DNA from: an uncultured Candidatus Saccharibacteria bacterium
GTDB lineage: Bacteria > Patescibacteriota > JACPGU01 > CAZICA01
Length of the DNA stretch: 45,620 nucleotides
Direction of reading: 5' to 3'
NCBI GenBank assembly: GCA_964537705.1
Contig: CAZICA010000002.1
Span: 1-45,620, forward strand
Shown here: positions 2,561 through 7,156 of the stretch, piece after piece
Numbering within the stretch: the first letter of the stretch is position 1
Layout of the letters: each line of letters starts with the position of its first letter
Notes under the pieces: generated by a model
Database searches by the model: none
What the model was told of the DNA's origin: nothing
Seen by the model: only the letters and a program-made list of their open reading frames with translations
Made by a program: the position numbers and the translations under genes

Positions 2561-2592
2561 AATCCGGAAGAATTTCCGGATTTTTTATTTTT
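2561..2592 (+). terminator. rho-independent terminator
   Basis: A 9-bp stem AATCCGGAA (2561-2569) pairs with TTCCGGATT (2574-2582) around loop GAAT, followed by a T-run. Confidence 0.8.
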
Positions 2593-2627: not shown

Positions 2628-3254
2628 ATGAGAGAACCAATTCCAGAGGAAGAATTAATGGAATTAGCAAGAAAAGCAGAGGAAGAAGAAAAAGAACGTT
2701 TAAGTCCAGAGTTATTTCAAAAATTAGAAGAAAAGATTAAACCTCTTTTAGAAAAAGGAAAATTTAAAACAGAAATAATATCAGCTCCTCAAGAAGGTCT
2801 TTTGTATGAATTTGAACTAGAACATGAAACTCGTCTTAAATGCGAACCGTTTGAACCCAAAAAATGGGATACTCATATAATTGATGTTTATGATAAATCA
2901 GGAAGGTGCCGAATAAGAGTTAAAAATGGGAAACCAAGACTTTCTTTGAAAGTTCCCTTGTTATCAAAAGACCTGGAGCACGCTAAATGTTGTTTGAGAT
3001 TAGAATTTAAACCACTTTCTGAAAAAGATGAAAAAATGCTTTTTCAAATAAGAAATTTTCTATTAGAAGAGGAAGGAACACAAATTCATGAGAAATGGGG
3101 AAAACTTTTGATAGCACCTGATAAGACGAAAGTTTGGTTAAATAAGGATAACAAAGGAAATTATTGGATAGAAGTTGATAAAACAAAAGATATTGTTCTT
3201 CCTCCAGAGATAAAAGTTACAGGTTATGAAAAAAGTAAAGTAAAAATAGAATAA
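2628..3254 (+). CDS. CYTH-like (triphosphate-tunnel-like) domain protein with an acidic N-terminal region
   Basis: The track start at 2532 would read through the terminator hairpin. ATG 2628 has GAGGAGGA 4 nt upstream. The sequence has a CYTH-like strand pattern: YEFELEHE.., RCRIRVKNGKPRLSLKVP, LRLEFKPL, GNYWIEVDK. This assignment is from motif resemblance only. Confidence 0.45.
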   Translation: MREPIPEEELMELARKAEEEEKERLSPELFQKLEEKIKPLLEKGKFKTEIISAPQEGLLYEFELEHETRLKCEPFEPKKWDTHIIDVYDKSGRCRIRVKNGKPRLSLKVPLLSKDLEHAKCCLRLEFKPLSEKDEKMLFQIRNFLLEEEGTQIHEKWGKLLIAPDKTKVWLNKDNKGNYWIEVDKTKDIVLPPEIKVTGYEKSKVKIE

Positions 3255-3257
3255 AGA

Positions 3258-3857
3258 ATGAAAAATTCATTTAAAAAAGAATTTCTTCGATTTTCAAGAC
3301 TTGCAAATCAATTAGCACCTTGGGCAAAGGATGATAAATTAAAAGATCATGAGCCGAAATGGCATCAATTTGGAATAAAAAGGCATACTTTAGAAGTTTT
3401 GAAAGTAGCAGATTATTTATATAAAAAAACCAAAATAGATGTTAGAAGAGCAGCGATATGGCATGATATAGGGAAATATGTGGTTCGAAAAAAGAAGGAT
3501 GGTCAATACAGCTTTAAGGGCCATGAGAAAGCTTCAGTTGAGATTTTAAAAAAATATCAAATTCCTCTTACTGAAGAGGAATTTTTTATTATAGAGCATC
3601 ACGGAGATATAATTAAAAAAAGCATTTCCCGAATCAAAAAAATTTGCAAAGATAAAAATTTATTAGCGAAATTAGTAATTTTAGCTGTAGCAGATAAAAT
3701 AGGAAAAGGAGAAACCCCTCTTCAAAACTATCAAAGAAAGCTATTAATGGGTAAATATGTAAAACTGGCTGAATTAGCAGGATTGGATCCAAAATTGATT
3801 GAAAATTTATTTAAGAATAATTTAAAATTCTTAGAAAAAAGGAGGAAAAATGGTTGA
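3258..3857 (+). CDS. HD-domain metal-dependent phosphohydrolase
   Basis: The H...HD...H...HH...D pattern is present: RHTLEV, IWHDIGK, KGHEKAS, IIEHHGD, AVADKIGKG. The gene starts 3 nt after the upstream stop. Confidence 0.8.
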   Translation: MKNSFKKEFLRFSRLANQLAPWAKDDKLKDHEPKWHQFGIKRHTLEVLKVADYLYKKTKIDVRRAAIWHDIGKYVVRKKKDGQYSFKGHEKASVEILKKYQIPLTEEEFFIIEHHGDIIKKSISRIKKICKDKNLLAKLVILAVADKIGKGETPLQNYQRKLLMGKYVKLAELAGLDPKLIENLFKNNLKFLEKRRKNG

Positions 3858-6006
3858 AAAAGAGAAATTTATCCCAGAAGAAATTAAAAAATGGAGAATT
3901 CCTGAAGTTTATAATTTAAACGAAGGTTTGGATCAGGTAGAAAAGAGGATAAAGGAATTGATAGAGGAATTTGACAGGCCTATTATCGTTGCTGTTGCTG
4001 GAGGTTCTGCTTCAGGAAAAACCACCAAGGTAGCGAAAGAGTTAAAGAAAAGATTTGAGTCAATTGAAGGAGGAGCGGGAATTTTAAGTATGGATGATTA
4101 TTACAAAGGAAAAGATTTTATGGCAGCTCATCCTGAATTAAACTGGGATCAGCCAGAGGCTTTGGATTTAGATCAATTAAAGAAAGATCTTCATGAATTA
4201 AAATTAGGAAAAACAATTCAGAAACCTATTTATTCTATGAAAGAATCAATGCCTGTAGGAACAGAATCTTTTAAAGCTCCTAAAGTGCTAATTCTTGAAG
4301 GACTTTTTGCTTTACATGATATTTTAAGTGATGAAACTGATTTAAAAATATTTACTGAAGTCGGACTTCATGGAAGGTTATTAAGAAGATTGATGCGAGA
4401 TGTTGAAAGAACAGGATTAAATCAGAAAGTTATTTTGAAATATTATCAAGAAATTGTTGTGCCAATGCATGAGAAATATATTAAACCATCCAGAAAAGAA
4501 GCAGAATATATTATAATTAATGAATACGATCCAAAGAAAGAGACAGAGAAAATAAAGAATTATGAAGTTCAATTAAAAGTTCCTTTTAAATTTTCTGGAG
4601 AGAAACTAAAAGAGCTAGGCGCTGAGTTTGTTAAAAGTATTCATCAAAGAGATGTTTATTATATTCCTCCTAATAAAGAACCTGAGGAAGTTGATGAATT
4701 GATTCGGATTAGAAATGAAGGGGAGAGATATTTTATTACTTATAAAGGACCTCAAATTAGTAAGGAAGTTAGGATAAGACCGAAGATTGAATTCGAAATT
4801 GATAAAAATATGGCAGAAGTTCTTGAAAAATTGGGATATAAGCCATTTCTTGAGATTAAAAAAGATAGAGAAATTTATAAAATTAAAGAAGTAGAACTGG
4901 TTGTTGATGATGTAAAAGATTTAGGAAAATTTATAGAAATTAGAGCAAAAAAGCCAGAAGAAGAATCAGTGGTTAAAGAACTTTCAGCAAAATTAGCTAT
5001 AGATCCTTCTAAGGAAATAAGAAAGACTTATTTCGAGCTAATAAAAGAAGAATTAGAGAAGCCTATTGGACCGGAGATTTTTGATCAAGTTAAAAGGATT
5101 CTTAAAACCTCAAAAGATCGAAAAGAGAAATATTTAGAGTTGATAAAGGATTTGTCTATGAAAGAGATAGAAGATCGGATTTTAAAAATAAGAGAGAAGA
5201 TAAAAAATAAGCCTAAAGAAGTGGTATTTCCTGAATTGAGCCCAGAAGAACTAGGAGTTCTTGAAAAAAGAATTAAAGAACTAAAAAAAGATAAAAGAGT
5301 GGTAGAATTTAAAGAGTTGACTCGGGCTATTGAATTTCCTCTTTTAACTTTAAGGATTGATTATCTTTTAGGAACAAAAAAGATCTCTGGTTCGAGATTC
5401 AGAGAGGAGGCTTTGAAAATAGCTTCCTTTATGAGTAGAGAGATTCTTAAAAGAGAAAAATTATCCAAAGAAAACACTATTGTTATTGCTCCTTGGAGAG
5501 CTGGACTTTCAATAGCAGAAGCCTTTGCAGATCAATCTTTTAAAAATTTTTGGCATATAGGAGCTAGAAGAAATGAAAAAACTTTAGAAACAGAGATTTA
5601 TTATGAAGCAATTCCGAAAGTAGTTAATCAAGTTAAATTAGAAGAAAATAAAGGTTTAAAAGTGGTGATAACTGATCCGATGTTGGCAACTGGAAATACT
5701 ATTAAAGAAATAATAGACCGTCTTTTAAAATATCAAATTAAAGAGGAAAATATAATTGTAAATTCTATTATTTCTGCTCCTGAGGGAATTGTAGAATTAA
5801 CCGAAAGTTATCCAAAAATTAAAATTTATACTGGCTCTATAGATGAAAAATTAGATTCACGAGGTTTTATAGTTCCCGGTTTAGGAGATTTTGGAGATAA
5901 ATATTTTGATGGTATTACCTTGGAGTATATTCAAAAAAGATGGGTAGGGAAGAAATTAATAAGTCCTTCTGATTTTGGCTTTCTTCTTTATAGATTGCAA
6001 TTATAA
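3850..6006 (+). CDS. triple-domain fusion of uridine/cytidine-kinase-like P-loop kinase, CYTH (CyaB/ThTPase-like) domain and uracil phosphoribosyltransferase
   Basis: The kinase domain has AVAGGSASGKTT, DDYY, LILEG and RRLMRD..R motifs. The CYTH domain has YEVQLK, LIRIRNEG, ITYKGP, RPKIEFEI and LGKFIEIRA. The UPRT domain has IAPWRAGLS, VITDPMLATGNT, SAPEG and PGLGDFGDKYF. The gene overlaps the HD gene by 8 nt. Confidence 0.85.
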   Translation: MVEKEKFIPEEIKKWRIPEVYNLNEGLDQVEKRIKELIEEFDRPIIVAVAGGSASGKTTKVAKELKKRFESIEGGAGILSMDDYYKGKDFMAAHPELNWDQPEALDLDQLKKDLHELKLGKTIQKPIYSMKESMPVGTESFKAPKVLILEGLFALHDILSDETDLKIFTEVGLHGRLLRRLMRDVERTGLNQKVILKYYQEIVVPMHEKYIKPSRKEAEYIIINEYDPKKETEKIKNYEVQLKVPFKFSGEKLKELGAEFVKSIHQRDVYYIPPNKEPEEVDELIRIRNEGERYFITYKGPQISKEVRIRPKIEFEIDKNMAEVLEKLGYKPFLEIKKDREIYKIKEVELVVDDVKDLGKFIEIRAKKPEEESVVKELSAKLAIDPSKEIRKTYFELIKEELEKPIGPEIFDQVKRILKTSKDRKEKYLELIKDLSMKEIEDRILKIREKIKNKPKEVVFPELSPEELGVLEKRIKELKKDKRVVEFKELTRAIEFPLLTLRIDYLLGTKKISGSRFREEALKIASFMSREILKREKLSKENTIVIAPWRAGLSIAEAFADQSFKNFWHIGARRNEKTLETEIYYEAIPKVVNQVKLEENKGLKVVITDPMLATGNTIKEIIDRLLKYQIKEENIIVNSIISAPEGIVELTESYPKIKIYTGSIDEKLDSRGFIVPGLGDFGDKYFDGITLEYIQKRWVGKKLISPSDFGFLLYRLQL

Positions 6007-6036
6007 TTAATAAATTTTTAACATCGAGGGTTTTCG

Positions 6037-6062
6037 GAAGAGGTTTTACCTCTTCTTTTTTA
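6037..6062 (+). terminator. rho-independent terminator
   Basis: Stem GAAGAGG (6037-6043) pairs with CCTCTTC (6049-6055), followed by a T-run. Confidence 0.75.
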
Positions 6063-6098: not shown

Positions 6099-6127
6099 TT
6101 GACAAATTTTTAAAAATATGGTATATT
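6099..6127 (+). promoter_or_regulatory. sigma-70-type promoter with extended -10
   Basis: TTGACA (6099-6104), a 17-nt spacer ending in TGg, then TATATT (6122-6127). Confidence 0.65.
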
Positions 6128-6169: not shown

Positions 6170-7156
6170 ATGGAAGAAAAAATAAAAGTAGAAAATCAAT
6201 CTATTCCAAATTTAAAGGTTATTAGTAAAGAAGATTTTATGAAAGAACTAACAGGAATTAGTTCAGAGTTTAATGCTTTAGAAGAGAAGAGGCCCGAGAA
6301 GGAAACTGAGAAAGATAAGTTTTTAAAATCTATTAAAGAAACTTTAGAACAATATCCTGATCTTAAAGAAACCGAAGTTTATAAAAATGTAGAAAAAACC
6401 ATTCAAGAAGTAAAACAAGTAAAACAAGAAAGAGAAGAAAAAGAACTCGAGAAGGATTTTACTCCTGTTCCAGAGAAAAGAAAGATGAGTGAAGAAGAAG
6501 AGAGAGAGCTATTTACTCAACTTTTAAGAGATGTAGAAAACGGAAGAACAAGAGGAGATATTTATAGAAATCTAGATAAAGCAATAGAACTAGGGGTATT
6601 AAAAAGATTGGAAAGAAAAGTTCCTCCTTATCTCTTGAAAGGACCTTACTTTAAATGGGGAAGAGAAACTTATTTACCTGAAAAGGGTTATCCAAGAGCT
6701 AGAGCTGAAGCACTTATAAGTAATTTGATAGAATTATCCAAAAAAGTTCGAGAAATAGAAAGAAAACAGAAAGAAAGGATTCTAGAAGAATATGAAAGAA
6801 TTAAAGATTCTGAGGTGAATATTTTGGATCTACTTCTTGATAAGAAAAAAACAGGAAAAGTAGGTTTCTCTTTAGATAAAACCATCGAATTTAACGGGAG
6901 ATTTAAGAGATATAAAGGAGTTTTGATCCTGGAAGCAAGAAGAATAAAAGGAGGAAGAAAATTAATTTTCTTAAAAGCAACTCCAGAACTCTATCGAAGA
7001 TTAAAACAAAAAAGACCTTTTACCCCAGATCTTAGAAATACTTCTTTAGAAACCCGAATTTTACTCACCGAGCTTAAAAGAGAAGCAGAGGTAGAAGAGG
7101 TTCGAAAGAAACTCAAGGAATTAAAAGTAAAAAAGCAGGTAGCTGAAAGAAAATAA
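6170..7156 (+). CDS. hypothetical Lys/Glu-rich protein, 328 aa
   Basis: AAGGAGGTGA Shine-Dalgarno 4 nt upstream. The gene has its own promoter. No family recognised. Confidence 0.65.
   Translation: MEEKIKVENQSIPNLKVISKEDFMKELTGISSEFNALEEKRPEKETEKDKFLKSIKETLEQYPDLKETEVYKNVEKTIQEVKQVKQEREEKELEKDFTPVPEKRKMSEEEERELFTQLLRDVENGRTRGDIYRNLDKAIELGVLKRLERKVPPYLLKGPYFKWGRETYLPEKGYPRARAEALISNLIELSKKVREIERKQKERILEEYERIKDSEVNILDLLLDKKKTGKVGFSLDKTIEFNGRFKRYKGVLILEARRIKGGRKLIFLKATPELYRRLKQKRPFTPDLRNTSLETRILLTELKREAEVEEVRKKLKELKVKKQVAERK

Follow-up and report, generated by a model that had tools for sequence, protein, structure and literature searches.

This analysis concerns three adjacent genes, ORF1, ORF2 and ORF3 (open reading frames; Table 1), in a 45,620-nucleotide (nt) stretch of contig CAZICA010000002.1 from an uncultured Candidatus Saccharibacteria bacterium; this whole stretch is called the window. 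ORF3 encodes a triple fusion of uridine-kinase, CYTH (triphosphate tunnel metalloenzyme, TTM) and uracil phosphoribosyltransferase (UPRT) domains, all far above their Pfam cut-offs, ORF2 encodes an HD-domain protein, and the product of ORF1 belongs to a Patescibacteria family that is rare and unannotated. An earlier note, made from the sequence alone, had described the genes as one self-contained nucleotide module. Its gene coordinates, with three + strand genes, a 3-nt gap between the first two (3255-3257) and an 8-nt overlap between the last two (3850-3857), match ours exactly, and its HD, uridine-kinase, CYTH (in ORF3) and UPRT assignments are supported by Pfam and NCBIfam profile searches. 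As a system, the trio is two separable units, ORF1 with ORF2 on one side and ORF3 on the other, and not a conserved set of three genes.

Table 1. Features of the three-gene locus, with the loci at which relatives of ORF1 have an HD neighbour
Feature	Coordinates or loci	Strand	Details
ORF1	2628-3254	+	208 amino acids; GGAGG Shine-Dalgarno sequence 8 nt before the ATG
ORF1 N-terminal extension	2628-2795	+	residues 1-56; variable, helices 7-24 and 27-42, low pLDDT
ORF1 core	2796-3251	+	residues 57-208; conserved beta-barrel, predicted fold TTM/CYTH-like
ORF2	3258-3857	+	199 amino acids
ORF3	3850-6006	+	718 amino acids; GGAGG Shine-Dalgarno sequence shortly before the ATG, within the end of ORF2
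ORF3 kinase domain	3985-4515	+	residues 46-222; Pfam PRK 2.9e-27; uridine/cytidine-kinase-like P-loop kinase
ORF3 CYTH/TTM domain	4558-5031	+	residues 237-394; Pfam CYTH 2.1e-26, 93.3 bits against a cut-off of 23.2
ORF3 linker	5032-5334	+	residues 395-495; Lys/Glu-rich, joins TTM and UPRT; no significant Pfam family
ORF3 UPRT domain	5335-5910	+	residues 496-687; Pfam UPRTase 6.2e-39; phosphoribosyl pyrophosphate (PRPP) motif VVITDPMLATGNT, uracil loop IVPGLGDFGDKYF
Upstream intrinsic-terminator-like hairpin	2561-2582	+	9-bp stem, T-run to ~2592; -11.6 kcal/mol, z -1.97
Internal hairpin in ORF2	3559-3584	+	perfect 11-bp stem, then T-run; -13.7 kcal/mol, z -4.06
Downstream intrinsic-terminator-like hairpin	6036-6056	+	9-bp stem and T-run; -11.7 kcal/mol, z -5.23
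Stand-alone ORF1 relatives with HD neighbour	L001, L004, L006, L011, L018, L019		clear HD_4
ORF1 relatives with C-terminal Fic fusion and HD neighbour	L015, L016, L017, L020, L022		divergent HDxxED protein immediately downstream

Domains of the ORF3 fusion

Alignment of the ORF3 kinase domain to AtTTM1, Thermus thermophilus Udk and UCK2 shows that the P-loop (GGSASGKT), the catalytic Asp (in MDDYY) and the Arg-rich lid (RRLMRDVERTG) are retained. Residues 24-399 of ORF3 align end to end with residues 29-393 of the AtTTM1 kinase-TTM crystal structure 7z66 (E 1.1e-38), and this alignment takes in the stretch before the P-loop, where AtTTM1 has its extra N-terminal helix. ORF3 has what characterizes the plant-type kinase-TTM module, namely a UCK-like kinase contiguous with a tunnel, and degenerate motifs in that tunnel.

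The tunnel domain is a bona fide CYTH/TTM sequence member (E 7e-19 against SaTTM). When it is compared with SaTTM, PH1819 and AtTTM1, DxY and RxR are kept, while ExQxK stands for ExExK and ExR for the ExE of strand 8; the same substitutions run through the listed relatives with a P-loop (ExQxK in 105/114, ExR in 91/114). In the SaTTM study the glutamates of ExExK and ExE bind the catalytic metals (PMC8233210). By these motifs two of the four canonical metal-binding glutamates are missing from the ORF3 tunnel, which is probably a member of the CYTH family that is not a canonical triphosphatase; with the two glutamates lost, its role is most likely regulatory.

The earlier note had entertained a cyclase or second-messenger function. 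Class IV cyclases need HFxxxxExExK, an Ala at the second Glu of ExE and a small residue for the central Arg (PMC8233210). At these places ORF3 has KIKNYEVQLK (no HF), FIEIR (Arg, not Ala) and IRIR (Arg retained), and ORF1, too, lacks HF and retains RxRxR. Because ORF3 is without all three cyclase features, a cyclase role is disfavoured and the label 'class IV adenylate cyclase' is unsupported; the loss of two metal-binding glutamates, as in the catalytically inactive AtTTM1 domain, speaks further against the idea. The NCBIfam cyaB score of ORF3 (106, over the cut-off of 57.95) reflects the shared fold only.

The third domain has the hallmarks of Upp: a profile score above a curated cut-off (PRK00129, 119.4 bits against 114), the PRPP-binding motif and the uracil-binding loop, with DPMLATGNT and VPGLGDFGDKYF apparent in the alignment. 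Its Pfam UPRTase score is 134 bits against a cut-off of 27, and its TIGR01091 score, 129.8, is under the cut-off of 208.35. The note's conservative reading, pyrimidine salvage, fits ORF3 with its kinase and UPRT domains.

Relatives of ORF3 and origin of the fusion

All 119 listed relatives of ORF3 (39-51% identity) carry PRK and nearly all carry CYTH. UPRTase is in none of them, ORF3 being its sole carrier among the 120 listed matches. At least ~200 residues precede the P-loop in 93 of the 114 listed relatives in which a P-loop is recognisable, and this N-terminal extension is a second CYTH domain, detected both by Pfam and by a profile built for this analysis; among listed relatives its ExExK motif is intact (e.g. 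EIERKF) in 88/96. The module is frequent among Patescibacteria, and its usual architecture there is CYTH-kinase-CYTH.

No other uridine kinase-CYTH-UPRT fusion was found among the 120 listed matches, and when metagenomes were scanned with the C-terminal part of ORF3 (half of the protein), only stand-alone UPRTs came up. The nearest kin of the UPRT part are stand-alone UPRTs of 243 amino acids, with 50-53% identity and the same C-terminal tail. Since UPRT is absent from the listed relatives and its kin stand alone, ORF3 appears to be a one-off fusion. An identical copy of the 718-residue protein occurs on two contigs (these may not be independent assemblies), which makes a chimeric assembly unlikely. 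In the origin that we envision, a Patescibacterial kinase-TTM gene would have dropped its intact N-terminal CYTH and captured a UPRT of the stand-alone type.

The listed relatives (P0015-P0133) are named 'class IV adenylate cyclase' or 'uridine kinase' in the databases, and by the motif criteria of PMC8233210 the former name is probably wrong for the CYTH-kinase-CYTH proteins. At five other loci with a kinase-CYTH gene, the neighbours are a CCA-adding enzyme (2/5) or unrelated genes (3/5, one locus each with ATP synthase and metK, with a TrmB-family regulator and with miscellaneous genes). The CCA-adding enzymes, full-length and HD-bearing, lie directly 5' of the CYTH-kinase-CYTH genes of the closest ORF3 relatives (L012 4554-5993, with a 7-nt gap; L013 4565-6004, with a 4-nt overlap), an arrangement that suggests a link of the CYTH-kinase-CYTH gene to tRNA or nucleotide metabolism.

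A predicted tunnel fold in ORF1

ORF1, whose start at 2628 was reproduced by an independent gene call, has no Pfam or NCBIfam match, and 13 members of its family had none either at E <= 10. Profile searches of the PDB with the family gave no CYTH match, and hhalign of the family against both CYTH domains of ORF3 relatives, N- and C-terminal, gave probabilities below 2%. Smith-Waterman scores of ORF1 relative to shuffled sequences are at most marginal (z -0.2 for PH1819, 3.4 for SaTTM and 1.1 for the ORF3 tunnel domain). The family is rare, with 13 proteins in a word-indexed database and 35 cluster representatives among 1.84 billion in an exhaustive profile search.

Structure prediction is more informative. 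The AlphaFold model of the ORF1 core, built from 37 sequences, is confident (pLDDT 93.4, pTM 0.84) and shows ten strands and a single long helix; residues 1-56, outside this core, are missing from many relatives in the alignment. Foldseek searches of the PDB with the model matched PH1819 (2een, probability 1.00), thiamine triphosphatase (3tvl, 0.97) and YgiF (5a60, 0.82), and in the BFVD viral library the named high-probability matches were CYTH-domain proteins and RNA triphosphatases of capping enzymes. The best matches are CYTH, at TM-scores of 0.38-0.53. The Mediator Med18/20 barrels, which score like CYTH, are the sole named high-probability PDB matches outside CYTH/TTM.

Invariant residues of the family lie at i, i+2 on the predicted strands, facing one side of the sheet. 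By strand they form ExExExExR (1), DxY (2), RxRxRxK (3), RxSxK (4), KxCxRxExK (5) and WxExD (last long strand), and these motifs run in the order of the CYTH motifs. Strand 1 does not have the ExExK hallmark: the family-invariant series is E61-x-E63-x-E65-x-E67-x-R69, with Glu at the Lys position. D86-V-Y88 and R93/R95/R97 (RxRxR) are also invariant, and the C-terminal motif, W-x-E182-x-D184, is ExD and not ExE. From the predicted fold and the motifs we are fairly confident that ORF1 is a divergent tunnel-fold protein with a charged lumen that would bind metal and phosphate. Its formal CYTH membership is unproven: of the description 'CYTH-like' given in the earlier note, the predicted fold and the motif order hold up, and a CYTH profile match did not appear in the profile searches.

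We also considered whether ORF1 could be the split-off N-terminal CYTH of a CYTH-kinase-CYTH protein. As homology this was rejected, because there is no profile similarity and because ORF1 relatives have a conserved context of their own. It is possible that ORF1 substitutes functionally in trans for the missing N-terminal CYTH.

ORF2 and the pairing of ORF1 relatives with HD proteins

ORF2 is an HDIG-type HD protein (Pfam HD 9.9e-12, 45.6 bits against a cut-off of 22; TIGR00277 HDIG 9.9e-12, 44.6 against 27.6). Alignment with the HD domain of a CCA-adding enzyme shows a complete set of metal ligands (H43, H69-D70, H89, H115/H116 and D146), and we take ORF2 to be a putative metal-dependent phosphohydrolase. 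A search of a word-indexed database of 5.8 billion clusters returned only the match of ORF2 to itself, and a PDB search gave only spurious TPR matches. Locally, ORF2 most resembles the HD domain of the CCA-adding enzymes encoded directly before the two closest ORF3 relatives (27-28% identity, ~26 bits). A remnant of a CCA-adding enzyme is nevertheless an unsupported origin for ORF2, because the similarity is no better than to the HD domains of Cas3 or RNase Y.

The genomic context of the ORF1 family was collected at 14 other distinct loci, all outside the window. In 11/14 of these, the ORF1 relative directly adjoins an HD protein gene on the same strand (157-205 amino acids), so that the partnership of tunnel protein and HD protein proposed for the window is conserved for the ORF1 family elsewhere. 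Gene order in these pairs varies, with spacing from a 4-nt overlap to ~255 nt, and the variable order favours a functional link over inherited synteny. The pairs are of two kinds (Table 1). The partners of stand-alone ORF1 relatives are HD_4 proteins, one of which (in L004) matches the SpoT/RelA hydrolase region at E 3.7e-25. At the five loci with Fic fusions, the HD_4 assignment is by sub-threshold Pfam matches and alignment, and the HD gene overlaps the ORF1-Fic gene by 1-4 nt in two of them (L015 and L017).

The Fic domain of the family bears HPFADGCGR, a variant Fic motif in which Asn is changed to Cys and the final Arg is not conserved, and it matches FICD at E 9.4e-8. Such fusions were seen in P0137, P0138, P0145, P0150, P0152 and P0163 (genes include L015 5329-6987 and L017 5722-7149), and tandem duplications of the ORF1-like domain in P0144, P0147, P0151 and P0153. 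In a descriptive tally, the neighbours of the stand-alone ORF1/HD_4 pairs include dCMP deaminase, dCTP deaminase, guanylate kinase, Maf, NUDIX, pyrD and pyrF, as well as an amino-acid-kinase-family protein (likely UMP kinase).

ORF2 differs from these usual partners: it has no HD_4 profile match, WHDIGK where they have HDxxED, and 18-21% identity to them. In the window, an HDIG protein may have taken the place of the customary HD_4 partner, or its adjacency to ORF1 may be coincidental.

All three genes together were found at none of the 14 ORF1-family loci and five kinase-CYTH loci; only the ORF1-like gene with an HD gene recurs. The three-gene system proposed in the earlier note is not co-conserved in this neighbourhood survey, given that the neighbours of kinase-CYTH genes vary, ORF2 has no close relatives and a second UPRT fusion was not found.

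Two side observations were made at these loci. Adjoining one ORF1-like/HD_4 pair is a gene (L018 6353-7474, - strand) for a 373-residue protein with an N-type CYTH (EIEKRF) and an AAA_28 P-loop kinase, a CYTH-kinase fusion of a second type for Patescibacteria. TrmB-family regulator genes recur near ORF1-like/HD pairs and one CYTH-kinase-CYTH gene (L015 8358-9170, L018 3114-3854, L019 926-1690 and L024 130-891); they may be regulators of these genes, or merely common in these genomes.

Transcription signals

Ten terminator-like sites were found by a terminator scan of the 5.8-kb region, against 2.7 +/- 1.5 in shuffles. The hairpin upstream of ORF1 is most likely the end of the preceding small transcription unit, and for the one downstream of ORF3 none of 200 shuffles folds as well. 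The earlier note had called the bracketing terminators strong. The hairpins are present, and at about -11.6 and -11.7 kcal/mol they are moderate and ordinary. The hairpin within ORF2 (3559-3584) is more stable than both; it is possibly an internal terminator or attenuator between ORF1/ORF2 and ORF3, or a chance occurrence. A promoter-like site lies ahead of ORF3 at 3799-3828. Promoter-like sites are not enriched in the region (15, against 19.8 in shuffles), and since they are no commoner than in shuffles the promoter calls carry no weight.

One isolated transcription unit for ORF1-ORF3, as the note had it, is consistent with the flanking hairpins; the hairpin in ORF2 and the promoter-like site weaken it. 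Because that internal hairpin is the most stable of the three, we would call a single unit, and with it co-transcription, only plausible.

Comparison with known systems

The nearest characterized relatives of the kinase-tunnel part of ORF3 are AtTTM1 and AtTTM2. Their module has weak activity for uridine to UMP and weak pyrophosphatase activity (Pesquera et al. 2022, PMC9582702); the tunnel is catalytically incompetent, inserts into the nucleoside site and was proposed to gate the kinase (PMC9582702). Like ORF3, they (7z66) combine a UCK-like kinase with a tunnel lacking canonical metal-binding glutamates. They differ from it in detail, since AtTTM1 has lost both Glu of ExExK and has QxQ, where ORF3 has ExQxK and ExR, and the C-terminal membrane anchor of the plant proteins is absent from the bacterial one, which has UPRT in its place. 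An extra, intact N-terminal CYTH is found in most bacterial relatives, but neither in the plants nor in ORF3. Pesquera et al. 2022 termed the kinase-TTM family 'plant-unique' (PMC9582702), a label that the bacterial relatives, going by their sequences, contradict. Among the matches listed, the Patescibacteria CYTH-kinase-CYTH proteins share 40-51% identity with ORF3 over the kinase and C-terminal tunnel, with the same ExQxK and ExR; ORF3 is unique there in lacking the N-terminal CYTH and having a UPRT.

The combination of kinase and UPRT likewise has eukaryotic counterparts. Plant UKL proteins are uridine-kinase/UPRT fusions. Human UCKL1 (Q9NWZ5) shares with ORF3 the order kinase then UPRT, with two pyrimidine-salvage enzymes in one chain (PMC11270883), but ORF3 has the tunnel domain and a linker of ~100 residues between the enzymes. 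Since the ORF3 UPRT comes from the stand-alone Patescibacteria lineage, its fusion would be independent of the eukaryotic kinase-UPRT fusions.

For ORF1, the structural matches PH1819 (2een), SaTTM (7ns8), 3tvl and 5a60 have motifs in colinear order: against the ORF1 series YEFELE, DxY, RxR, LSLKVP, RLEF and WIEVD, the CYTH series is YEVELK, DxY, RxR, LTYKGP, RLEIE and FIEIE. ORF1 departs from the CYTH/TTM enzymes in its ExExE and ExD motifs, extra strands, one long helix only and TM-scores of ~0.4-0.5. Iyer and Aravind 2002, as far as they are cited in PMC8233210, described CYTH fused to HD hydrolases or nucleotide kinases. The association of tunnel, HD and nucleotide kinase in the window, at operon and fusion level, resembles what that citation reports, except that here the tunnel-like and HD proteins are separate genes and ORF1 falls outside the Pfam CYTH model. 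The SpoT hydrolase and small alarmone hydrolases (HD_4) are like the usual partners of ORF1 relatives in their HDxxED motif and SpoT/RelA hydrolase match, and differ from ORF2, which is of the HDIG type and outside HD_4.

The superfamilies of the parts are already known, as are two of the three pairwise combinations (kinase-TTM and kinase-UPRT). New are the triple fusion, the kinase-TTM module across the candidate phyla radiation (CPR), and the unannotated tunnel-like family with its HD partnership and Fic fusions. The note's statement that this is not a described system is right for the triple fusion, found nowhere else, and goes too far for the kinase-TTM, kinase-UPRT and CYTH-HD fusions, which have been described.

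Interpretation and alternatives

The reading to which we give about an even chance is that a pyrimidine-salvage fusion (ORF3) is juxtaposed with a tunnel-like/HD phosphohydrolase pair (ORF1 and ORF2) in a lineage-specific and maybe co-transcribed arrangement. The gene layout, domain identities, motif states, predicted fold and neighbourhood counts are what the analysis shows; what the enzymes catalyse, a regulatory tunnel, co-transcription and a metabolic link between the two units are what we infer. In ORF3, the UPRT domain would convert uracil and PRPP to UMP, and the kinase domain would carry out ATP-dependent phosphorylation of a nucleoside, most likely uridine or cytidine by its motifs. 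The tunnel between them would be a regulatory module or gate that binds (poly)phosphate or nucleotide, with at most weak pyrophosphatase activity, as proposed for AtTTM1/2, and no cyclase activity. ORF1 and ORF2 would be this genome's form of a pair of genes that is conserved across Patescibacteria, with an HD protein of the HDIG type here and not of the SpoT-hydrolase type. ORF1 would be a metal-dependent enzyme acting on a substrate that bears tri- or polyphosphate, with a lumen of invariant Glu/Asp and Arg/Lys, and the pair would most likely serve sequential hydrolysis of nucleotide phosphoanhydride or phosphoester bonds, as turnover or house-cleaning, a role that would suit a place beside a salvage enzyme. 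A shared nucleotide economy in a scavenging organism could account for its possible co-transcription with ORF3.

Several results weigh against this reading. On the side of ORF3, the kinase falls below both NCBIfam uridine-kinase cut-offs (139.3 against 180 for udk, and 131.7 against 220.3). The alignment also places a Glu at the position of UCK2 His117, which we take to be the base-reading His. With sub-cut-off scores and this His replaced, the nucleoside substrate is uncertain. On the side of ORF1, significant sequence or profile similarity to CYTH is lacking, the Foldseek matches that yield the TM-scores of 0.38-0.53 have E of at least 2.5e-3 (none below 1e-3), and the family has ExExE where CYTH has ExExK. 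The pairing with ORF1 could be coincidental, since ORF2 is not HD_4, and at the Fic-fused loci no nucleotide-metabolism neighbours were seen among the genes scanned. Finally, the internal hairpin at 3559-3584, together with the promoter-like site before ORF3, could uncouple transcription of ORF3 from that of the pair.

One alternative, the speculative reading of the earlier note, makes all three genes one pathway for a uridine-derived signalling nucleotide, in which uridine kinase and UPRT supply UMP and then UTP, a tunnel (ORF1 or the CYTH domain of ORF3) makes a cyclic or polyphosphorylated product and the HD protein degrades it. Tight gene packing and flanking terminators would suit such a pathway, the set of acidic and basic residues in the ORF1 lumen is complete, and the conserved pairing of tunnel-like and HD proteins, the latter elsewhere of the SpoT alarmone-hydrolase type, resembles a synthetase/hydrolase pair. 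The trio, however, is unconserved, the neighbours of kinase-CYTH genes being unrelated in three of five cases and a CCA-adding enzyme in two; both tunnels are without the HF motif and without the Glu-to-Ala or Arg-to-small-residue substitutions of class IV (PMC8233210); two metal ligands are missing from the ORF3 tunnel; and in the literature consulted on TTMs we found no TTM that makes polyphosphorylated nucleotides. We regard this pathway as very improbable. Somewhat less so, if still unlikely, is that ORF1 and its HD partner form a module of toxin-antitoxin-like, defence or protein-modification function that has nothing to do with salvage, with ORF3 nearby by accident. Many members of the ORF1 family have a C-terminal Fic domain, and an HD_4 protein follows them, overlapping by 1-4 nt in two loci; small SpoT-type hydrolases are reported to serve as antitoxins in toxSAS systems; and the Fic part gave weak SoFic matches in PADLOC. 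Against this, no Fic domain is present in the ORF1 of the window or anywhere in the window, PADLOC was negative for ORF1 and the HD_4 partners, and the stand-alone ORF1/HD_4 pairs lie amid housekeeping genes of nucleotide metabolism and not in recognisable defence islands. For the window genes PADLOC assigned no defence system, finding nothing for ORF1, generic Cas3/Cas10 HD similarity for ORF2 and weak PRTase similarity for ORF3.

The fold of ORF1 is itself open to another explanation, that it is a non-catalytic beta-barrel, e.g. for ligand binding or as a scaffold, whose likeness to CYTH is convergent, so that the cluster has one tunnel domain. We think this a small chance. It would explain why there is no profile or profile-profile signal, why the pairwise score with PH1819 is no better than for shuffles, why TM-scores are low and Med18/20 barrels equal CYTH, and why a Glu occupies the place of the hallmark Lys of ExExK. 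Apart from Med18/20, however, the named high-probability Foldseek matches in two libraries are CYTH or RNA-triphosphatase folds, and some 25 invariant or nearly invariant charged residues line one side of every strand in CYTH motif order. So many conserved, one-sided charged residues would be difficult to account for if the lumen were neither catalytic nor ligand-binding. To a bolder proposal we attach little likelihood: the ORF1 family would be an unrecognised, Patescibacteria-restricted branch of triphosphate-tunnel enzymes, obligately paired with an HD protein (and with a nucleotidyl-transferase where fused to Fic). Their product or substrate, made and removed or processed in steps, would be either a polyphosphorylated nucleotide or an adduct of nucleotide and protein, and the pair would be wired here to UMP salvage.

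Surroundings of the locus

The window, with a G+C content (GC) of ~30%, also encodes ADP-forming acetyl-CoA synthetase, a LOG/SLOG protein, an RNase J-like enzyme, DeoC, iPGM and PGI; outside the three genes, it was searched for a full CCA enzyme, an N-type CYTH, HD_4 and Fic, and none of these was found. All named relatives of the three proteins are from Patescibacteria/CPR bins, whose lineages include Parcubacteria, Paceibacteria, Saccharibacteria, Vogel-, Yanofsky-, Falkow- and Uhrbacteria.

The genes on either side, all on the + strand, have some features of their own. A 532-residue protein without a Pfam family (88-1686; GC 0.39 against ~0.30 elsewhere in the window) may be a recent acquisition. 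A 67-residue ORF (2174-2377) has two CxxC pairs (CPRC...CPSC) with the look of a zinc ribbon and terminates at a hairpin (2377-2395). Alone between this hairpin and the one at 2561-2582 lies a lysine-rich ORF of 32 residues (2412-2510; MELDKYEIYKKIRKPIPPPSKYHSSKKRKKGI) with a strong AAGGAGG ribosome-binding site. Directly 3' of the three genes, a Lys/Glu-rich protein of 328 residues without a family match (6170-7156) has a GGAGG and its own near-consensus promoter-like site (6099-6127, 11/12 matches, with TG).

Significance

The physiological substrate of plant TTM1/2 is unclear, and fusion to UPRT in one lineage is a hint of the Rosetta-stone type towards uracil/uridine salvage. As a small bacterial protein, ORF3 is suited to testing regulation by the tunnel domain. 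The ORF1 family, with its unusually consistent SpoT-type HD partners and its Fic fusions, may well be part of a new nucleotide-processing pair of nucleotide-scavenging organisms.

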